From contig RFIL01000041.1 of assembly GCA_003695285.1 (NCBI GenBank), forward strand, positions 1-30,440: a stretch of DNA of 30,440 nucleotides, given 5' to 3'. The position numbers were made by a program, and so were the translations under genes. The notes under the pieces are model-generated. The model had not been told where the DNA came from and made no database searches. It saw only the letters and a list, made by a program, of their open reading frames with translations. This DNA is from Calditrichota bacterium. Lineage in GTDB: Bacteria > Calditrichota > Calditrichia > RBG-13-44-9 > J075. Below, piece by piece: positions 1 to 10,553 of the stretch. Each line of letters starts with the position of its first letter. Within the stretch, counting starts at the first letter, position 1.

Positions 1-185
1 TACTCCATCCCGAACCGCCAATGCGGATATCGGATTGGGAATCCTCCATATGCTGCCAGCTGGCTCATGGTATCATAATCCACCATCTCAAATATGACCG
101 GAAAAAAGTCCAACCCATATTCACGGGCATATGCTTCGATCTCGGGTTGCAGGGCAATTATATCTTCTTTAGTTGCGGCTTTCAT
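1..185 (-). CDS. spoVR: SpoVR/YcgB family protein, N-terminal part (runs off the left edge of the window)
   Basis: Not in the ORF track. Manual translation from the ATG at 185 (overlapping the yeaH stop as ATGA) gives [61 protein letters not shown], containing the SpoVR-type [16 protein letters not shown] motif. It follows prkA-yeaH. Confidence 0.93.
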
Positions 186-1288
186 TTTCCTTTCCCCAAA
201 AAATCTTTAATAGAATCATAAATTGCTTCTTTATCCGGGATGTACGATAGAATCAAATTATCATGCCCATCCAAATTCTCATCCAGGAAATCGATAAATT
301 CTCCACTACCATAGGTGCTTTCCACCTGACCATACCCGAATAAATTTACCCTGGGTAAAATTTCGTTTTTCAGCAGATCTGCACAGAGCCGGTTGTCCTC
401 ACGCGACCAGTTATCACCATCTGAAAAATGAAAGGCATAAATATTCCATTCATCTGGCGGATAATCCTGGTCAATAATCTGCTTGCATAGTTCATAAGCG
501 GTAGAGATGACAGTTCCTCCGTTTTCTCGAACACTAAAGAAGGTATCCCGGTCCACTTCATGAGCCTGTGCATCATGAATAATATAGCGAGTCACCAGAC
601 CTTTGTATTGATAATGCAGCCAGGTATCAATCCAGAATGTTTCTAAGCGAACGATTTGTTTTTGTTCATCCCACATCGAGCCGGAGACATCCATCATATA
701 GATAATAACCGCATTGCTTTGAGGTTGAGTGGTGGTCTTCCAGGATCGATAGCGGAAATCCTCACGAATGGGAACGATCTGGGGTTTTTCCATATTAAAC
801 TGGCCGGTGATGATCTGGCGCTTCAGAGCTTCACGAAATGTTCGTTTAAAATGTCGCAGGGATTCCGGTCCCACTTTGCTGATACCGGTATAGCGATCTT
901 TTTCCGAAACAATTTCCTTTTTCCCTTTGGGTTCAATGTTGGGCAGTTCCAATTCTTCAGCCAGAATTTCCGCCAGTTCTTCCAGGGTCAATTCAACCTC
1001 GCGAAGATGATAACCGGGTTCATTTCCGGCGTTCCCTGCTCCGGCTTCGCCATCGTCACCGCTCAAGGGGGTACCGGGTTCCCCTTCTCCCTGTCCGGCT
1101 CCACCTCGGCCATTATCCCCAAAACGGAAACGGGGTAAATCTATCTGTGGAAGAGGTATACTGATTAAATCCCGACCTTTTCTGCCAATCATTTCCCCAT
1201 TGGATATATATTTCCGCAGGTTCTCTTTGACCTTTCCTTTGATAATCTGGCGGAAACGATTGTAGTCATTATCAATGTGCATTAACAT
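182..1288 (-). CDS. yeaH: YeaH/YhbH (DUF444) family vWA-domain protein
   Basis: [19 protein letters not shown]-terminus, Gly-rich GQGEGEPG segment, MIDAS-like [17 protein letters not shown]. The ORF track starts at TTG 1333; ATG 1288 (or 1282), preceded by AAAGGGT, is the more likely start. Confidence 0.92.
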
Positions 1289-1353
1289 AATTAAAAACCC
1301 TTTATCTTTCCTTCGACCAGTTTCTTCTGGCAAAAAACTTACCTTTTATCAAC

Positions 1354-1429: not shown

Positions 1430-3490
1430 TTATTCCTGGATATCACCCCGGGCAAAGATGCTGGCGACATAATTCAATACATCGGTCGCACTGTGTTCGT
1501 CGTATCCGAAATCTTTAATCAATCGCGCTTTCACAATATCAATCTTTTCCTGGGTTTCCTTATCCATCACCGAGGAGACCAGGGAGGATAATTTGATGCT
1601 ATCCTTCTGATCTTCAAACAGCTTTAATTCCAGGGCTTTTGCCAGGCGCTCATTGCTTCTCCAATCAAATTTCTTCCCTTCCAGGGAAAGTGCACCGATA
1701 TAATTCATAATTTCCCGACGGAAATCATCTTTTCGGCTTTCCGGAATATCAATTTTTTCCTCGATGGAGCGCATCAATTTTTCATTCGGCTCTTCATCTT
1801 CGCCGGTGTATTTGTTCTTCACTTTTTCCTTCTGTACATACGCTTTCACATTATCAATGTAATTGGCGAAGAGTCGCTTAATTCCTTCTTCATCAGCACT
1901 GATGGCTCGTTGCACTTCATTCTTGACGATTTCGGTGTATTCTTTCTTAACCACCTGTATCAACTCCCGATAACGTTTTTTGGTCTCCTCACTGGTAATC
2001 AGACTGTGATGATCCAGTCCGCTTTCCAGTTCATTTAAGACCATGAATGGATTCACTGTAGGTTCTTCCGGGAATTTAACAATGGCATTGGAAATTTTAT
2101 CCTGCACATAGCGCGGAGAGATTCCTTCCAGACCTTCCCGGACCGCTTCTTTCCGGAGTTCCCGGACATTATCCTCCGTGTATCCGGGGATAAGTTTGCC
2201 ATCATACAGTTTTAGCTTTTGTACCAGGGTTAAATCTGCTTTTTTGGGTTCTTCCAGACGAGTCAGCACCGCCCACATGGCCGCCATTTCGATGGTGTGA
2301 GGGGCAATAAATTTTCCGCGGATTTTTTCGTTATTGTAATCCTTCTTATAAATCTTTATCTCTTCCGACCACTTGGTAATATAGGGAATATCCACCTTCA
2401 CCGTTCTATCGCGAAGGGCCTCCATAAACTCATTATTCTGGAGTTTGCGATATTCCGGTTCATTGGTATGTCCGATGATGACCTCATCAATATCAGTTTG
2501 GGGAAATTTTTTCGGCTTAATTTTATGTTCCTGGCTGGCACTCAACAGATCATAGAGAAAGGCCACATCCAGCTTCAACATTTCGATGAATTCGATGATA
2601 CCGCGATTGGCAATGTTAAACTCGCCGTCAAAATTAAACGCCCGGGGATCGGAATCTGAGCCATATTCCGCAATCTTTCGATAATTAATATCTCCGGTTA
2701 GCTCGGTAGAATCCTGGTTTTTCTCATCCTTCGGTTGGAACGTTCCAATTCCGATGCGATCCTTTTCAGAGAGCAGAATTCGTTTCACCCGAACATGTTC
2801 CAGAACCTTCATCCAGTCGCCATTGTGCATTTCCACTAAACCGCGATAAATTTGACGACAACTGGGGCACAATCCACCTTCGACATATACCTCTTCGAAC
2901 TTATTGCCCAGCAATCCACGGAGAAATTCTTCTCGAATACCTTCCGGGATGATATGAAGGGGTTCTTCGTGCATCGGACAGGCGATATTCTCATGGGGAG
3001 AAGTTTCCACATCCTCAAAAAATTTGGGGACATTAATCCACTCAAAGGAATATAATGCGCCTTCCTCCGTTCGGGAATAATGCTCCAGCCCTTTTTTCAT
3101 TAATCGCACAATTGTACTCTTAGAACTTCCCACCGGTCCGTGTAAGAGTAGCACCCGACGCTCGGTTCCATAGCGATAAGCTGCCGATTTGATAGCGTTC
3201 ATCAGCTTCATCAGATACGCGTCTAACCCGAAGACCGCATCTTTTCCATTGTCAATGGGGTCATCAAAAAACTTGTAATGAATCATCTTCTTTCGTGAGT
3301 CTTCATACTCTTCGACACCGAAGGAAAGAATCATATCATACAAGCGCTGATATGCGGTTCGGGTGACCTTGGGATTTTTCTTTACCAGCTCCAGATATTC
3401 CTCGAAAGAGCCTGTCCAGGTAAGCGCCTGGAACTCTTTGTCGAAGTACTTTTGCTGGATATTCGTGAGTAATTGGGTTGGTGATGCCAT
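1430..3490 (-). CDS. prkA: PrkA/YeaG family AAA+ ATPase ('serine protein kinase')
   Basis: Walker [10 protein letters not shown], Walker B-like [38 protein letters not shown]; RBS AAGGAG upstream of ATG 3490; operon with yeaH and spoVR. Confidence 0.96.
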
Positions 3491-3496
3491 AATCCA

Positions 3497-3597
3497 TGTC
3501 TCCTTGTAATTAATTTAATGTTAACATTTCTACCCGATTATTGTCAGACACTCTTTCGTCCCTGAATACAGAGTGCTTCGCAGGAGGAAAGGAGACA
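3497..3597 (-). promoter_or_regulatory. Putative structured 5' leader of prkA with anti-Shine-Dalgarno
   Basis: On the mRNA, UGUCUCCUU (3597-3589) is perfectly complementary to AAGGAGACA (3505-3497), which contains the prkA SD. A CACUCU/AGAGUG stem lies between them. Confidence 0.5.
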
Positions 3598-3670
3598 AAC
3601 TCGAGAACGGACAGGCGCGAATACCGTGTTCACTGGAAGAGTCGCCAAACTGCAATCGAATACCTCTGTT

Positions 3671-3690
3671 TAAGGGGAATTTTCCCCTTA
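3671..3690. repeat. Perfect 9-bp inverted repeat (operator or hairpin)
   Basis: TAAGGGGAA-TT-TTCCCCTTA. Confidence 0.6.
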
Positions 3691-3799
3691 TATTTATTAG
3701 TGTCGTATAAATTTGAGCTTTCCTTATACTTTTCATTTTATATAAGTTATTTTTTTGGTTCCGGTGACTTGTCAGGCACCTGAACTATATCGATTGAAT

Positions 3800-3815
3800 T
3801 GCAATATCTTTGCCA
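3800..3815 (-). promoter_or_regulatory. Candidate sigma54 (-24/-12) promoter of the prkA operon
   Basis: Minus strand TGGCAAAGATATTGCA: exact GG-N10-GC spacing, TGGCA and TTGCA boxes, pointing toward prkA. Confidence 0.65.
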
Positions 3816-4245
3816 TATCTTAACTTTAATTGTTTATTTAACGGGAATACCGTCAAACAAGTTCACACAGATATCTAACTATTCTATCACGTTTTAATCA
3901 ATTTCAATCTCCCATCTTCTGGTAATTTTATATGTATGGATTCCACCGAATGTGTTTATCTCCCTGGATAAGGTCGAACACAAACAATTACTGTAAAAGC
4001 TGTCAGTTTAAATTACAATAAGGTGAAGGCGAAAATAATGGTGGTCAATACCTGCTTGATAATACCTCAACTGCAGATGAGGATAAATGGAAGTTTCCAG
4101 AGAAGGATAAACTTCTACCTTTTTATTACTTATGGGAAATTCTTTTTTCTTCATTGTTTTTTGAATTACTGCCATTTACTTTTTAAAACTCTTAAGTCAT
4201 AAAGAAAACGGTATCATTTTCTTTGTCATTCTGCTAAAACAAATT

Positions 4246-4274
4246 AAAGGTTGAAATTGTAAAAAGCAACCTTT
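4246..4274. promoter_or_regulatory. Inverted repeat upstream of the citrate synthase homolog (possible operator)
   Basis: AAAGGTTG-N13-CAACCTTT, about 40 bp upstream of ATG 4314. Confidence 0.35.
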
Positions 4275-4313
4275 TCTATGGAGAAAATAAATTTTTTTTG
4301 TGTTTGAGGTGAT

Positions 4314-5588
4314 ATGAATAATCTGAAACAAATCCTGACGACTAAAATTCCGATCTGGGGAGAACAACTTCAGAAAATCCAAAAAGAATATTCCGATTAT
4401 CCCGTTTCTACAATCACTGTTAAACAGCTGTTTAAGGGATTACGAGACGTTATCGCTGTAGTTTGCGATACCTCCTATGTTGATCCCCAGAAAGGACTAT
4501 TCATTCGGGATATACCGGTTCTGAAATTAATGGACCTTTCAGCCGAAGAACTTTTTTTTCTCCTTTGCAGTGGTGAGCAACCGGATGCACAGAGTGTGCA
4601 AGATTTGCAAATGGATTTATCCGCCCGGAGAGAGGTACCGCAACAAGTCTGGGATTTACTGGAAAGCCAACCCCCAGATACTCACCCCATGTCACTTCTG
4701 AGTATGAGCATGCTGGCCATGCAACGGGAATCTGTTTTTACAAAAGCTTATCAAAAGGGCTTATCCCGGGAACAATACTGGGAAGCAACCTTTGAAGATG
4801 CTTTGAACATCATTGCCAGACTCCCGGTAATTGCTGCTTATATCTATCGCCGTTTTCTTCGGGATGAACAGCCAATTGCACCACTGGCCCATCTGAATCA
4901 TACCGACAACTTTGCTAACATGCTGGGTTTCCCTTCCCGGGAGTTTAAAGAATTTCTTCAAAAATTTTTTGTGGTTCACAGTGACCACGAAGGAGCAAAT
5001 GCCAGCGTTTTTTCCAGTCGGGTGGTGAATTCTTCTCTTTCGGACCTTTATTATTCCATCTCAGCATCAATGAACAGCCTCGCAGGTCCCTTGCATGGGC
5101 TGGCCAATCAGGAATCACTCAAATTTATCCTTTCGGTCATCCAGGAATTTGCGGGAGTTCCATCTGAGGAGCAACTGGAAAAGCTTCTGAAAGTAAAAAT
5201 TCAGAATGGAGAAATTTTACCCGGTTTCGGACATGCGGTGTTACGAGCAGAAGACCCACGCTATCAGGCGCTTTTTGAATTCGGTGAGCAGTTATGCCCG
5301 GATGACCCTGTTTTTCAGGTGGCTGGTTTGTTAAAGAAATTGGTGCCACCACTGTTAATCGAAAAGGGAAAGGCCAGCAACCCTTACCCGAATATCGACG
5401 GGATTACCGGACCTCTTCTTTATCATTTTGGGATGAAAGAATTAACCTTTTACACAGTCATGTTTTCCACTGCACAGGTGTTGGGAATTTGTGCGCAATT
5501 AATTATCAACCAGGCATTGATGTTGCCAATATTCCGCCCCCGTTCGATTCCTCTGGCGCATTTAAAAGAACTTATTGAGAACCAGTAG
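4314..5588 (+). CDS. Citrate synthase family protein, eukaryote-like type, divergent (Arg401-equivalent is Gln)
   Basis: HSDHEGANAS, LAGPLHGLANQE, PGFGHAVLRAEDPRY, YPNIDG, FRPRS motifs; RBS GAGGTG. FSTAQVLG replaces the usual FGVSRALG, so the symbol gltA is withheld. Confidence 0.9.
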   Translation: MNNLKQILTTKIPIWGEQLQKIQKEYSDYPVSTITVKQLFKGLRDVIAVVCDTSYVDPQKGLFIRDIPVLKLMDLSAEELFFLLCSGEQPDAQSVQDLQMDLSARREVPQQVWDLLESQPPDTHPMSLLSMSMLAMQRESVFTKAYQKGLSREQYWEATFEDALNIIARLPVIAAYIYRRFLRDEQPIAPLAHLNHTDNFANMLGFPSREFKEFLQKFFVVHSDHEGANASVFSSRVVNSSLSDLYYSISASMNSLAGPLHGLANQESLKFILSVIQEFAGVPSEEQLEKLLKVKIQNGEILPGFGHAVLRAEDPRYQALFEFGEQLCPDDPVFQVAGLLKKLVPPLLIEKGKASNPYPNIDGITGPLLYHFGMKELTFYTVMFSTAQVLGICAQLIINQALMLPIFRPRSIPLAHLKELIENQ

Positions 5589-5660
5589 CGTAGTAAATTC
5601 GAGGTAATCAATAGCAAAACCAATTTTCTTTAGCCATCGTTGATGGAGCTTAAATAAGTT

Positions 5661-6749
5661 ATGGTACCAACAGTAACCTCACGGGCTCCCGGTAAAATCA
5701 TTTTCCTGGGTGAGTATGCCGTTTTAAAAGGTGCACCGGCCATCGTGGCGGCAATGAACCGTTTTGCAACCGTGAGGGTTTCCCCCTCGCAACAGGGATT
5801 CTCCCTTTACTCCCCTTTAATTCATCCTGAAAAATTGACCTTTTCCCTGGACGATAACAAACAACCTCAGTTCTTATCCCTTCCTCCAGAGGTGCTTACA
5901 AAATTACTTTTCTTCTCCACCACCTTTGAGTTTGCTGTTAGAGAACTCTCCAGGAGACAATTGCCCCTTCATCCTGCTGAAATTGAATTAGATACTTCTG
6001 ACTTTTACCTTGGTAAAGATGATCTTAAATTGGGTCTTGGTTCCAGTGCTGCCTTAACCGTTGCGCTCCTGGCAGCTCTTTATGAATACGCTGGTATTTC
6101 TCTGAGAGATGAAGAAGCCCGTTTACATTTGCTTCAGATGGCACTGGATGCGCATCGGGTAGCGCAGAAAAAAATCGGAAGTGGGGTGGATATCGCAGCC
6201 AGTACTTTTGGCGGGGTGTTAGAATTTCAAAGAATGGAGGAGACACTCACTCAACCGGTTTACCTGGAGGAAGTGGAACTCCCCCCAAATTTGTATTATC
6301 TGTTTGTCTGGAGTGGAACACCAGCCTCCACCTCCCGGTTGGTAAAACAGGTTGAAGAATGGGAAACTCTGCACCCGAAACAAGCTCAAGAACTTTATCG
6401 GAAAATGATCGATCTTTGTAAAACCGGTTGTGAGGCTATCAAAATCGGCGATACAAATCAATTTTTAGAGATAGTAGATTCTTACTATCATTATTTGCAT
6501 GAACTGGGCAAACAAAGTGGTGCTCCGATTGTTTCCCCGGTTCATCAGCACCTGGCTGATCTGGTAAAGGAAGCAGGCGGGTTTTATAAACCCTCAGGGG
6601 CCGGAGAAGGGGATCTGGGGATTGCTTTTACCAACTCTCCGGAAACGGCTGAAAATATCAAGAGGCATCTTACTTCAGCCGGTTTTACCGTGCTTCCCTT
6701 AGAAATTGAAAAAGATGGTGTTCAATGTCAAATAAAAGAGGGTCATTGA
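5661..6749 (+). CDS. mvaK2: Phosphomevalonate kinase (GHMP kinase family)
   Basis: RAPGKIIFLGEYAVL, KLGLGSSAAL, GSGVDIAASTFGG, KPSGAGEGDLG motifs; sits in a mevalonate gene cluster. Confidence 0.85.
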   Translation: MVPTVTSRAPGKIIFLGEYAVLKGAPAIVAAMNRFATVRVSPSQQGFSLYSPLIHPEKLTFSLDDNKQPQFLSLPPEVLTKLLFFSTTFEFAVRELSRRQLPLHPAEIELDTSDFYLGKDDLKLGLGSSAALTVALLAALYEYAGISLRDEEARLHLLQMALDAHRVAQKKIGSGVDIAASTFGGVLEFQRMEETLTQPVYLEEVELPPNLYYLFVWSGTPASTSRLVKQVEEWETLHPKQAQELYRKMIDLCKTGCEAIKIGDTNQFLEIVDSYYHYLHELGKQSGAPIVSPVHQHLADLVKEAGGFYKPSGAGEGDLGIAFTNSPETAENIKRHLTSAGFTVLPLEIEKDGVQCQIKEGH

Positions 6750-6751
6750 TC

Positions 6752-8995
6752 ATGGATTCAAGAATACCCAAATTTTACAAACATTCGGTTCTGGAACGGC
6801 TGGAAATTCTTCGGGAACGAGAGATTCTTTCCCCTGAAGATTTTAAAATTTTAGCCAATGGCAGTAATATCCTGAATGCTGAGGAAGCAGACAAAATGGT
6901 GGAAAACGTCATTGGCGTGTTTACCTTACCTATTGGCCTGGGACTCAATTTTTTGATCAATGATAAAGACTATGTGGTGCCCATGGTTGTGGAGGAACCC
7001 TCTATTATCGCAGCAGTAAGCTCGGCCGCGAAAACAGTGCGCAATGCTGGCGGATTTCGGAGTAAAAGCACTGATCCGATTCTCATCGGTCAAATTCAGG
7101 TGGTGGATATCGAACATCCCTCTCATGCCCAGAAAGCAATTTTACAAAACAAAGAAGAAATACTCAACTTAGCCAACAGTCTTCATCCTAAAATGGTAGC
7201 CCGGGGGGGAGGAGCCAAGGATTTAGAAGTCATCATTCACCCCTCTTCCTCCCATCGAGGAGATATGCTTATTGTTCATTTGCTGGTCGATACCCGTGAT
7301 GCCATGGGGGCCAATCTGGTGAACAGCATGTGCGAAGGAGTGGCCTCTTTAATTGAAAAAATCACCAATGGAAAAGTCTTTTTGCGGATTTTATCCAATC
7401 TGACTGACCGTGCTCTGGTGGAGGCTGAATGCACTATCCCCACCCGGTTATTAGCTGGTAAAGGGTATAGTGGTGAAGAGGTTCGCGATGGAATTATTCT
7501 GGCCAATGAATTTGCCATGGCGGATCCCTATCGCGCCGCCACTCATAATAAAGGCATCATGAACGGGATTGATGCCGTAGCTCTGGCCACCGGAAACGAC
7601 TGGCGAGCAATTGAAGCCGCTGCCCATGCCTACGCCGCCAGGGGCCATGCTTATACCTCATTAACCCGATGGTATAAAAACGACCAGGGTGATCTGGTAG
7701 GAAAGATAAAAATACCGATGAAGGTGGGTATTGTAGGGGGACCGGTTCAATCCAACCCCACAGTGGGAATTTTACTCCGACTAATGCGGGTGGCAACGGC
7801 AACCGAGCTTGCCGAGGTGATGGGGGCTGTGGGATTGGCGCAAAACTTTTCAGCCCTCCGGGCCCTTTCCACAGAAGGTATCCAGAAGGGGCACATGACG
7901 CTCCATGCCCGCACTGTTGCCATGGCTGCCGGGGCTTCTCCGGATATTTTTGATGAAGTAGTGGACCAATTAATCAAAAGTGGTGAAATCAAAGTATGGA
8001 AGGCGGAGGAGATTGTGAAACAAATTCGAACTCGTGAAGAAGAGCCCCAAAAGGTAGAAGAAATCAAGGAAGCGGAAAAGTTAGCCTCCGGCAGTGGGAA
8101 GGTGATTCTCTTCGGTGAACATGCTGCTGTTTATGGAAGCCATGTGATTGCCGCTCCTATTCCCATCGCCATTCAGGCTAAAGTGGAGGATGAAAATGAT
8201 GGTATTCATCTGGTAATTCCACGCTGGGGGGTGGAAGAACGACTGCACATGGATACCGAGCATAAACACTCCATCTATCAATCTCTTGACCTGATCATCA
8301 ATACCCTGGGATTAAAAGACAAAAACATGCGGATTGAGGTTTATCCTAATGTTCCCAGAGCAATGGGGCTTGGAGGTTCAGCTGCTCTGGCGGTTGCGAT
8401 TATTCGTGCCCTCTCTCAGCACTATCAACTGAATTTATCTGATGATGATGTTAACAAACTGGCATTTGAATCTGAAAAGATTGTCCATGGAACTCCCTCC
8501 GGGATTGATAATACCATGGCCACTTATGGGAAATTCATCCTCTTCCGAAAGGGTGAACCCCCATTAATGAAACCGATTGATGTTCCCCATCCCATCCCCA
8601 TCGTGATTGGTCTTTCCGGGGTTGAAAGTCTCACTGCTAAAATGGTGGCGCACGTCCGGAAAGCATGGGAAAAAAATCAGGCGCTTTATGATAAGATTTT
8701 CAAGGAAATTGACGAACTCGCCCTGCAGGCTGTCAAAGCCATTCAAAATTATGACCTTGAAAAACTGGGAGAATTGATGAATATTAATCAGGGATTGCTA
8801 AATGCTCTGCAGGTATCCAGCTGGGAACTGGAAGAACTCATCCAGATTGCCCGGAATTCGGGAGCGCTGGGTGCCAAATTAACCGGAGGTGGAGGTGGAG
8901 GTGCCATGATAGCCCTCTGTCCCGATAAGGCAGAACAGGTGGCTGAGGCGATGCGAAAAGCTGGTTATAAAGCCATCATCACTGAGTTGCGCTAA
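6752..8995 (+). CDS. Class II HMG-CoA reductase fused in frame to a C-terminal mevalonate kinase
   Basis: HMGR part (~6752-8030): VVEEPSIIAA, DAMGAN, THNKGIMNG, GNDWRAIEA, IQKGHMTLHAR. MVK part (~8081-8995): GSGKVILFGEHAAVYG, PRAMGLGGSAAL, HGTPSGIDN, GAKLTGGGGGG. The likely start is ATG 6752 (RBS AGAGGG) rather than 6725. Confidence 0.93.
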   Translation: MDSRIPKFYKHSVLERLEILREREILSPEDFKILANGSNILNAEEADKMVENVIGVFTLPIGLGLNFLINDKDYVVPMVVEEPSIIAAVSSAAKTVRNAGGFRSKSTDPILIGQIQVVDIEHPSHAQKAILQNKEEILNLANSLHPKMVARGGGAKDLEVIIHPSSSHRGDMLIVHLLVDTRDAMGANLVNSMCEGVASLIEKITNGKVFLRILSNLTDRALVEAECTIPTRLLAGKGYSGEEVRDGIILANEFAMADPYRAATHNKGIMNGIDAVALATGNDWRAIEAAAHAYAARGHAYTSLTRWYKNDQGDLVGKIKIPMKVGIVGGPVQSNPTVGILLRLMRVATATELAEVMGAVGLAQNFSALRALSTEGIQKGHMTLHARTVAMAAGASPDIFDEVVDQLIKSGEIKVWKAEEIVKQIRTREEEPQKVEEIKEAEKLASGSGKVILFGEHAAVYGSHVIAAPIPIAIQAKVEDENDGIHLVIPRWGVEERLHMDTEHKHSIYQSLDLIINTLGLKDKNMRIEVYPNVPRAMGLGGSAALAVAIIRALSQHYQLNLSDDDVNKLAFESEKIVHGTPSGIDNTMATYGKFILFRKGEPPLMKPIDVPHPIPIVIGLSGVESLTAKMVAHVRKAWEKNQALYDKIFKEIDELALQAVKAIQNYDLEKLGELMNINQGLLNALQVSSWELEELIQIARNSGALGAKLTGGGGGGAMIALCPDKAEQVAEAMRKAGYKAIITELR

Positions 8996-9066
8996 GAAAG
9001 AAATAAATAATCACACTGAAGCATAGAGCGGTTGAGTAAACGTCTGGTAAAGTTAGGAGAGAGCTT

Positions 9067-9630
9067 ATGAGTAATAATGACCAGCAAGTTTCTTTTGATG
9101 ATGAGATGCTGATTCTTGTGGATGAGAATGATAATATAATTGGTTATGAGAACAAACTGGCGTGTCATCGTGGGGAGGGGCTTCTCCACCGCGCTTTCTC
9201 TATTTTTATCTTCAATGACCGCAAAGAGTTATTACTCCAACAGCGGAGTGAACAAAAACATCTCTGGCCTCTGTACTGGTCTAACAGTTGTTGTAGCCAT
9301 CCCCGGAAAGGAGAAGATCTGGAAAATGCCACCCAACGCCGCCTGGCGGAAGAGCTTGGTATTAGCACCCCACTCAAACACCTGTTCACTTTTCAATACC
9401 ATGCCAGATATAAAAACGTCGGTTCAGAGAGGGAGGTTTGTGCTGTCTTGATCGGTAAAAGCAATGATCCCATTTCAGTCAATCCCACTGAGATTGCCGA
9501 TTGGAAATACATTGGCATTAATGAGTTGACTCAGGAACTCGCCAAACACCCGGAAAAATATACACCATGGTTAAAAATGGAGTGGGAACGATTGATGGTA
9601 GAGCACCTGGACGATATTATGGCATTATAG
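9067..9630 (+). CDS. idi: Isopentenyl-diphosphate delta-isomerase type 1 (Nudix fold)
   Basis: LHRAFSIFIFN, LLLQQRS, NSCCSHP, RRLAEELG, EREVC motifs; RBS AGGAGA. Confidence 0.96.
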   Translation: MSNNDQQVSFDDEMLILVDENDNIIGYENKLACHRGEGLLHRAFSIFIFNDRKELLLQQRSEQKHLWPLYWSNSCCSHPRKGEDLENATQRRLAEELGISTPLKHLFTFQYHARYKNVGSEREVCAVLIGKSNDPISVNPTEIADWKYIGINELTQELAKHPEKYTPWLKMEWERLMVEHLDDIMAL

Positions 9631-9671
9631 GTGTTGGGAATAAAAAATGGTAGCCGCATAGGACATATGGT

Positions 9672-10553
9672 ATGACACTTGGTCTCGCAGGACTCAGACT
9701 TCATCAGACGGAGCCTCAGTTGACTGGGCCGATGGACCTCAAAGCGTCCGAGGTGTCGGTCGTCGTTCCCGTCCGCAACAACACGAGTGGATTGATTCGT
9801 TTGCTCGAGGCGATCGCGAACCTCGACCACGACTCTCAACCAGGTGAAGTCATTGTCGTCGACGACGGATCTCGACCGCAAGTGCCGATGGAGGCACTAC
9901 GGTCATCTTCGGATGGGCTATGCATCAGAATTGTCCGCATGCGAGGCACCGGTCCTGGTGTCGCTCGGAACGCAGGCGCTGCCTTGGCGCGGGGACGGTG
10001 GCTCTTATTTACCGATAGCGACTGCGTTCCATGTTCGGGCTGGGTCATGGGCTACAAAAGCGCCATGAACGGCGCGATTGCATATGCGGGTGGGGTTCGC
10101 GCTCTCCACAACGACTTTCTTTCGCGCTACTGCGAAGCGCAGGAGCTCTTAATACCACCTCCATGCGCTGACTTGCGCCCGCTGTACCTCGTAACCGCAA
10201 ATGCGCTCGTTCTGCGCGAGGCGTTTGTCCGCGTGCGCGGGTTCGATCCACATTTCGCAATTGCCGGTGGGGAGGATATCGATTTTGCACTGCGAATGCG
10301 CAAGATTGGCGACCTCTGCTTCGCGCTGAACTCGGTCGTATTCCACGACTTCAGCGGAGGTATACGAACCTTCCTCCGCAGATGTATTAGGTACGGCATA
10401 GGAAACCGGATGCTCGCCAATAAGTATGGCCTTGACCTCGCTCCACAAAGGTTTCGACCGGCTTTAAAAGGATGGCGGGCCACATTGGCAGCGCATCTTC
10501 AATTCGTAGGGCTATGGGTTGGGTATCACATGGCAGCCGGGGCCCGGTCATGA
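9672..10553 (+). CDS. Family 2 (GT-A fold) glycosyltransferase, GC-rich, probably horizontally acquired
   Basis: VSVVVPVRN, VIVVDDGS, GPGVARNAG, FTDSDC, GGEDIDF. The start may be ATG 9732 (MDLKASEV). Sampled GC was 38/60 and 36/60, against 24/60 in idi and 23/60 in the M23 gene. Confidence 0.88.
   Translation: MTLGLAGLRLHQTEPQLTGPMDLKASEVSVVVPVRNNTSGLIRLLEAIANLDHDSQPGEVIVVDDGSRPQVPMEALRSSSDGLCIRIVRMRGTGPGVARNAGAALARGRWLLFTDSDCVPCSGWVMGYKSAMNGAIAYAGGVRALHNDFLSRYCEAQELLIPPPCADLRPLYLVTANALVLREAFVRVRGFDPHFAIAGGEDIDFALRMRKIGDLCFALNSVVFHDFSGGIRTFLRRCIRYGIGNRMLANKYGLDLAPQRFRPALKGWRATLAAHLQFVGLWVGYHMAAGARS

Follow-up and report, generated by a model that had tools for sequence, protein, structure and literature searches.

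Can a protein that keeps almost the whole active site of citrate synthase (CS) but has lost one of its oxaloacetate-binding arginines still be expected to make citrate? This question was raised by a CS homolog encoded on a 30,440-nucleotide stretch of DNA (the window; contig RFIL01000041.1 of the Calditrichota assembly GCA_003695285.1). The assembly is a metagenome-assembled genome (MAG) of 587 contigs and 89% completeness, called G000 in our genome set. The three oxaloacetate-binding arginines of CS have, to our knowledge, been treated as invariant. The window protein belongs to a clade in which one of them, Arg401, has been replaced throughout, and its residue pattern suggests a neofunctionalised condensing or lyase enzyme acting on acyl-coenzyme A (acyl-CoA), with an acceptor that lacks the C1 carboxylate of oxaloacetate. 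We assign this reading a probability of roughly 55%. Residue numbers are those of pig CS unless query numbering is stated (Gln388 and Lys41), and the coordinates of the features are collected in Table 1.

The membership of the protein in the CS family was clear. It matched PF00285 (Citrate_synt) from end to end (280 bits, profile positions 1-357) and scored 442.6 bits with the subfamily model of citrate (Si)-synthase, NF007128 (cut-off 344), about 90 bits below the Arg-bearing sister proteins. The score with the eukaryotic equivalog model TIGR01793 was 399.7 bits against a cut-off of 619.75. An AlphaFold2 (AF2) model based on 68 homologs had a predicted local distance difference test score (pLDDT) of 92 and superposed on the reversible CS of Thermosulfidibacter takaii (TtCS, 8XXD) with a template modelling (TM) score of 0.96-0.97 and a root-mean-square deviation of 1.4 Å. 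TtCS and the plant and animal mitochondrial enzymes were the best solved relatives. Compared with eukaryote-type citrate (Si)-synthases (NF007128/PRK09569; TtCS 8XXD-F and the Desulfurella enzyme DaCS), the window protein showed 43% identity in the structural alignment, the same length, and the same dimer-type active site, but it differed by Arg401 to Gln, Gly43 to Lys, A245V, V374I, Y231F, and Y318F, and Thr326 was not conserved. Named close homologs carried a Calditrichota label, and the sequencing runs that contained the sequence were hot-spring metagenomes.

The HMMER alignment to solved CS structures was free of gaps over query residues 296-397, with an offset of 13 that was also valid for pig and chicken CS, and it placed Gln388 opposite Arg401 of TtCS (8XXD). 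An earlier note on this DNA had read Gln at the Arg401 position from the sequence, and the gap-free register bore this out. The equivalents of H238, N242, H274, H320, R329, D375, and R421 listed in that note were also present in the alignment, and the drifted motifs ASVFSSRVV and NIDGITG read as quoted there. In TtCS, Arg401 and Arg329 are located at the keto end of oxaloacetate, and Arg401 is hydrogen-bonded to the keto-end (C1) carboxylate oxygens in one complex, whereas the other carboxylate is held by His238 and Arg421' (bioRxiv 10.1101/2024.11.06.622199). The oxaloacetate arginine set Arg329/Arg401/Arg421' is thus incomplete in the window protein, with Arg401 gone and R329 and R421 kept.

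CAG is one base away from the Arg codon CGG and the MAG is highly fragmented, and Gln388 could in principle be a sequencing or assembly error or a mark of a decaying pseudogene. However, the same codon was found in contigs of two hot-spring metagenome runs (depth 17 and 4.4), although six other positions in these contigs departed from the window. In the 120 top-ranking homologs (protein clusters), the Arg401 column contained R in 64, Q in 45, H in 8, L in 3, and N in 1. The homologs closest to the window protein were the non-Arg ones; 55 related clusters carried Q, H, L, or N at this position and never R. Synonymous turnover of the Gln codon was seen among the fetched loci (CAG 14, CAA 12), and the open reading frame (ORF) was intact and under purifying selection. 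The agreement of the two runs, the homolog column, and the CAG/CAA turnover together indicate that the substitution is a fixed trait of the lineage and not a matter of chance or error. The loss of Arg401 is real and lineage-fixed, and sequencing error, which the earlier note had flagged, was excluded by the two runs and the clade-wide conservation; an artefact or a decaying gene retains practically no probability.

The remainder of the active site was retained. In all 55 clade members, H235, H238, H274, G275, A277, H320, R324, D327, R329, N373, D375, F397, R421, and R46 were invariant. The catalytic triad His274/His320/Asp375 is therefore present in the query as in every other member. The kept residues include those that enolise acetyl-CoA and hydrolyse the thioester (H274, D375), polarise the carbonyl (H320, R329), clamp the distal CH2-COO- arm (H238, R421'), and bind the CoA phosphate (R46, R324). 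Since the rest of the active site is kept and a single oxaloacetate clamp is lost, a changed acceptor would be the best reading of these sequences. The proposal that acetyl-CoA activation is retained while the acceptor is altered was accordingly borne out for the residues themselves (55/55, with a ratio of nonsynonymous to synonymous substitution rates, dN/dS, of ~0.1), and its second half stands as the most plausible interpretation.

Several otherwise conserved residues were replaced in a clade-specific manner, namely Y231 (F), L234 (V), A245 (V), L282 (V), Y318 (F), V374 (I), and R401 itself (Q, H, L, or N), and T326 had become variable. Near the lost C1-carboxylate residue, the neighbours were bulkier or lacked hydroxyl groups. 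A second substitution was strictly coupled to the first: position 43 was K or R in 55/55 Arg401-less clade members versus Gly in 64/64 Arg-bearing relatives. G43 is located in the GGMRG loop, which also bears the CoA-phosphate ligand R46. In TtCS, this loop (39-44, TtCS numbering) is part of the CoA entry/exit site (bioRxiv 10.1101/2024.11.06.622199).

The coupling bears on the possibility that the protein is still a citrate synthase, for example a second, stress- or stationary-phase-specific isozyme that is regulated differently or binds oxaloacetate less tightly, in which Lys/Arg43 or the remaining R329 and R421' make up for Arg401. A perfect coupling of G43 to K/R with the loss of R401 is what a relocated charge would produce; every other CS residue is invariant, the fold is unchanged, and the NF007128 cut-off is exceeded. 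However, the CoA-phosphate loop with position 43 is found at the entrance of the cleft, outside the oxaloacetate pocket, and the tolerance of Leu, His, and Asn at position 401 suggests that no specific bonding role is left there.

The phylogeny added to this picture. In the maximum-likelihood tree, all 55 non-Arg proteins formed one clade (Shimodaira-Hasegawa-like approximate likelihood ratio test, SH-aLRT, 99), and its sister was an Arg-bearing Calditrichia clade (n = 14), suggesting that Arg401 was lost once and that Q, H, L, and N were exchanged afterwards. The clade spans two Calditrichota families, and a library of 1.84 billion representatives contains it as a single 50% identity cluster. 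The dN/dS values were 0.09-0.10 in two congeneric pairs. A single base change would turn any of the Q, H, and L codons into an Arg codon, and Arg was found in 0/55 members, suggesting that selection may act against Arg at position 401. The failure of Arg to return in any of the 55 proteins, at a distance of a single mutation, is also difficult to explain for an isozyme that still binds oxaloacetate.

A further possibility considered was a pseudoenzyme, inactive or regulatory, that might be a partner of the PrkA module encoded next to it or one of its substrates. Such a protein could have lost a substrate-binding residue, and its conserved place beside prkA would be understandable; in addition, the CS homolog had only 65% identity between the two closest genera, compared with 83-92% for prkA, idi, and the gene for the fused 3-hydroxy-3-methylglutaryl-CoA (HMG-CoA) reductase and mevalonate kinase (HMGR-MVK). 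Nevertheless, the catalytic triad, the CoA ligands, and the remaining oxaloacetate ligands were complete in 55/55 members, which is not expected for a protein without catalytic function, and dN/dS was ~0.1. We consider a pseudoenzyme improbable.

The citrate synthases of the phylum were surveyed in 86 species genomes; families are designated f1, f2, and so on, f1 being the family of the window and f2 the next family. At most one eukaryote-type CS was found per genome. The earlier note had left room for a second canonical CS, and two were present in the window genome, both with the arginine: a type II CS on contig C306 (NF004126, 624 bits against a cut-off of 505) and a PRK14032-type CS on contig C274 (NF010635, 675 bits against 426). 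Its alternative idea of a heteromeric subunit found no support, given the single eukaryote-type CS per genome and the retention of R421, a residue that one homodimer subunit contributes to the active site of the other.

The distribution of the genes differed among the families. In f4-f8, the eukaryote-type CS was of the Arg type and was the only full-length CS. A PRK14032-type CS was present in nearly all genomes of the window's order, and nearly every genome with the non-Arg paralog had a canonical CS in addition. In this order, the eukaryote-type gene had one of two fates. In f3, it was not found in 13/17 genomes and had Arg in the 4 that keep the gene; in f1 and f2 together, it was present in 20/20 genomes and lacked Arg401 in the 19/19 that were readable at this column. 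The second CS of the order thus probably made the eukaryote-type gene dispensable as a citrate synthase, after which it was either lost or retained with Arg401 lost. Such a pattern of loss or retention is what neofunctionalisation predicts, and it is hard to reconcile with a merely redundant isozyme, as sister lineages with a second CS lost the gene and the non-Arg form was kept in every f1 and f2 genome. With the evidence on both sides, continued citrate synthase function appears unlikely but keeps an appreciable share of the probability.

A changed acceptor could have arisen as follows. On the stem of one Calditrichota clade, Arg401 was lost and Lys/Arg gained at Gly43, together with the more hydrophobic residues of A245V, V374I, Y231F, and Y318F, the ancestral housekeeping role having probably become dispensable through the second CS of the order (PRK14032 type, joined by a type II enzyme in some genomes). 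The enzyme would then join an acyl-CoA to a carbonyl partner other than oxaloacetate in a Claisen-type condensation, or would work in the reverse direction as a lyase. The simplest candidate would be R-CO-CH2-COO- with an uncharged R, for example a 3-oxo acid. Its divergent placement next to the prkA-yhbH-spoVR starvation/stress module became fixed in the clade.

Related systems offer partial parallels. The 2-methylcitrate synthases (fungal mcsA 5UQO and bacterial PrpC; 35-36% identity in the structural alignment, same fold) are likewise CS-family paralogs with changed specificity. In methylcitrate synthases the acyl-CoA has changed and oxaloacetate and Arg401 are kept, whereas the window protein is altered on the oxaloacetate side. 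It was rejected as a 2-methylcitrate synthase, with 168, 149, and 108 bits for TIGR01800, NF010636, and NF009006 against cut-offs of 421, 479, and 550. Citryl-CoA lyase of the reductive tricarboxylic acid (TCA) cycle has the CS fold and carries out the C-C step without net citrate synthesis, providing a precedent for the lyase direction, but these lyases are short (~260-280 aa) and the window protein is full-length (424 aa). A citryl-CoA lyase was also rejected by score (NF004864-NF004869, 28-49 bits against cut-offs of 193-261). Short CS-family ORFs of ~262-305 aa that cover only the C-terminal half of PF00285 and resemble citryl-CoA lyase were widespread in Calditrichota (for example, G062:C1:3235100-3235681); none reached the threshold in the window's assembly.

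Table 1. Positions of the features discussed, in window coordinates.
Feature	Coordinates	Strand	Basis or remark
yhbH/yeaH (DUF444), second gene of the prkA operon	182..1333	-	profile matches
prkA (AAA_PrkA and PrkA domains), first gene of the divergent prkA-yhbH(DUF444)-spoVR operon	1430..3490	-	Pfam
Divergent AT-rich intergenic region between prkA and the CS homolog	3491..4313	.	823 bp
CS homolog, eukaryote-type, Arg401-less Calditrichota clade	4314..5588	+	424 aa; PF00285, NF007128, AF2 model, tree
Codon for Lys41 (pig Gly43 of the GGMRG CoA-binding loop)	4434..4436	+	alignment columns
CAG codon for Gln388 (pig/TtCS Arg401 position)	5475..5477	+	structure alignment, column counts, contigs of two metagenome runs, codon turnover
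Mevalonate genes: phosphomevalonate kinase (PMK)-like GHMP kinase, HMGR-MVK fusion, idi	5661..9630	+	profile matches
GHMP kinase gene	5661-6749
HMGR-MVK fusion gene	6725-8995
GT2 glycosyltransferase gene	9672-10553		between idi and the M23 peptidase gene

The neighbourhood of the gene was conserved on one side only. In the window, spoVR lies beyond the start of the contig; in relatives, yhbH is followed by spoVR and an ORF of ~170 aa. All seven metagenomic homologs (7/7; Q, L, or H at position 401) were arranged head to head with prkA-DUF444-spoVR and the small ORF, and the genes 3' of the CS homolog varied among them (CLC channel, DnaJ/Lon, epimerase, and others). Among the non-Arg species genomes, prkA was directly upstream and divergent in 14/16 scorable cases, the exceptions being G055 and G061; four further genomes were left unscored because the locus ends at a contig edge. 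At Arg-type loci, prkA was found in 0/13 within the fetched flanks. The prkA gene itself was present in all f1 and f2 genomes and sporadic elsewhere. These genomes are kin, and the pairing of prkA with the CS homolog therefore represents a small number of events.

The region between prkA and the CS homolog was 510-1027 bp in relatives and unusually long in all of them. Because the two transcription units share this region, co-regulation of the CS homolog with the prkA operon is likely. A search for riboswitches and leaders gave no Rfam match at E ≤ 1 over positions 3300-5800, and no 9-mer was common to at least 5 of 11 orthologous prkA-CS intergenic regions. A sigma54-like motif, TGGCA-N-TTGCA, was seen on the prkA side in the window (offset 325) and in the nearest genus, G056 (offset 338), only. 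The PrkA/YeaG-YeaH-YcgB module has been described as a conserved, co-fit signalling or stress unit of unclear output (bioRxiv 10.1101/072470), and Bacillus subtilis PrkA is reported to be an ATP-dependent protease (PMC9512850).

Several of these results weigh against a new function for the CS homolog. Its NF007128 score is above the cut-off for citrate (Si)-synthase, its neighbours give no hint of a substrate, the genes on its 3' side are variable, and the link to prkA is confined to one order and represents few independent events.

On its other side in the window, the CS homolog is separated from the first mevalonate gene by 72 nt. No terminator-like hairpin was found in this gap, whose folding was no better than that of shuffled sequences, and co-transcription with the mevalonate genes is possible in the window genome. 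The earlier note had linked this position to the lack of an HMG-CoA synthase (HMGS) gene in the mevalonate cluster and raised, as a speculation, that the homolog performs the missing condensation. On this view the enzyme would supply HMG-CoA from acetyl-CoA and acetoacetyl-CoA or acetoacetate. The adjacency itself is real, but it was found only in the window genome (G000) and in the nearest genus (G056), and it was absent in the seven metagenomic homologs and in the other species genomes examined. Megabases separate the three loci in the complete genome G064 (CS homolog at 0.62 Mb, HMGR-MVK at 2.28 Mb, and HMGS at 5.08 Mb). As the gene order occurs only in the window genus and one other, the mevalonate genes were judged not to belong to the same system, and the placement of the CS homolog before them was judged to be a local rearrangement.

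The window genome was also found to encode HMGS. The C-terminal half of an archaeal-type HMGS was located at the edge of contig C406 (C406:3-509; NF003274, 261 bits against 244, profile positions 180-346), with 58% identity to the HMGS of a genome of the same family, and a part of diphosphomevalonate decarboxylase (MVD) was located at the edge of contig C102 (C102:1-648). HMGS and MVD are each truncated where their contigs end, and the seeming incompleteness of the mevalonate pathway is explained by gaps in the assembly alone. HMGS was full-length in 11/15 f1 genomes and truncated at a contig edge in one more (12/15), and it was present in 4/4 f2 genomes, in one of them cut at a contig edge. 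All HMGS-positive f1 and f2 genomes carry the Gln-type CS as well, so that HMGS accompanies the paralog in 16/19 related genomes. The f3 genomes, in turn, run the mevalonate pathway without the non-Arg paralog.

Chemical considerations nonetheless speak for such a replacement. Acetoacetate differs from oxaloacetate in having CH3 where the latter has its C1 carboxylate. The intermediate of CS is (3S)-citryl-CoA. Exchange of the central carboxylate for a methyl group amounts to a 3-cycle of the Cahn-Ingold-Prelog (CIP) priorities, and the same geometry, with Si-type attack, would therefore give the natural (3S)-HMG-CoA. Furthermore, canonical HMG-CoA lyase was not found in f1 or f2 genomes. However, a second CoA site for acetoacetyl-CoA is not evident, and the kept thioester-hydrolysis residues would yield free HMG rather than HMG-CoA. 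With an HMGS elsewhere in the genome and no conserved linkage to the mevalonate genes, the combination that the earlier note itself had named as a refutation, its proposal did not hold; the homolog probably does not replace HMGS and probably has a new substrate, and a role as the missing synthase is very improbable.

A broader form of the idea is that Arg401-less CS-fold enzymes, that of the window included, form or cleave (3S)-HMG-CoA (or an analogue), with acetyl-CoA and acetoacetate (or a different 3-oxo acid) on the other side of the reaction. HMGS (thiolase fold) and HMG-CoA lyase (DRE-TIM fold) have no homology to the CS homolog, and only the proposed chemistry is alike, namely acetyl-CoA plus a 3-oxo compound in exchange with HMG-CoA. 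In favour of an HMG-CoA-related reaction, an independent Arg401-less lineage (locus L062) places its CS homolog after genes for an acyl-CoA carboxylase, hydratases, electron-transfer flavoprotein (ETF), and a CoA transferase; the missing HMG-CoA lyase in f1 and f2 genomes and the mevalonate genes next to the CS homolog in two genera likewise lend it weak support. On the other side, the hydrolytic residues are kept, HMGS is present, and the carboxylase stands alone in Calditrichota, and a lyase or synthase of HMG-CoA is improbable. A leucine-catabolism-type operon was looked for in the phylum and gained no support: the ortholog of the L062-type carboxyltransferase was a stand-alone gene in the complete genome G064, where it was 81-84% identical to the copy of the window genome, the latter being 59% identical to the L062 query.

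At locus L062 (a contig of NCBI GCA_031960865.1), the gene at 9001-10296 encodes an independent eukaryote-type CS homolog with Ile401 and Arg43. It closes an operon, and the genes ahead of it encode enoyl-CoA hydratase, the two ETF subunits (beta, then alpha), carboxyltransferase, biotin carboxylase, and biotin carboxyl carrier protein (BCCP), followed by a VOC protein resembling an epimerase, a CoA transferase, and another enoyl-CoA hydratase. Its position is one where a hydroxyacyl-CoA lyase would be anticipated. Other eukaryote-type representatives also lacked Arg401, with L, M, I, Q, or G instead, and most of them kept the catalytic triad. The family tree of the eukaryote-type CS implied at least five losses of Arg401. 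The representatives from other lineages were P0128, P0129, P0132-P0134, P0138, P0145, P0150, and P0187, and in some of these lineages Arg421 was also replaced, by His. Ten representatives were looked up, and any name they carried was citrate synthase and no other.

Taken as a candidate for a new activity, the clade has several implications. An entire clade without Arg401 is under purifying selection and carries a coupled second substitution, and it has a fixed genomic partner in the poorly understood PrkA-YeaH-SpoVR module. Being well defined, it is a suitable target in a search for new acyl-CoA condensing or lyase enzymes, and the CS homolog may offer a metabolic handle on what the PrkA module controls. 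Since the named members are labelled as citrate synthase in databases, metabolic reconstructions may miscount TCA capacity. If the HMG-CoA reading were true, the clade would represent a CS-fold, non-homologous HMG-CoA lyase or synthase and would add another path connecting ketone-body or leucine-type carbon with the mevalonate/acetyl-CoA pool, activated jointly with the PrkA starvation module.

Further observations concern the mevalonate genes and their surroundings. The HMGR-MVK fusion showed 74-79% identity across the window's family and the next family (loci L057-L061). Its reading frame was uninterrupted in G051 and G061 and contained one stop (TAA or TGA) in G059, G062, and G064; fused and split forms thus both seem to exist. 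The GHMP kinase was less conserved, with 47% identity between the two nearest genera (locus L048), compared with 83-92% for its neighbours, and it fell below the curated cut-offs for PMK (125 against 166 bits) and mevalonate kinase (103 against 163 bits). Finally, the GT2 glycosyltransferase gene had no counterpart at the corresponding place in G056 (L048, G056:C177), in which idi is followed directly by M23-ftsX-ftsE, and this arrangement is consistent with a recent insertion in the window genome.

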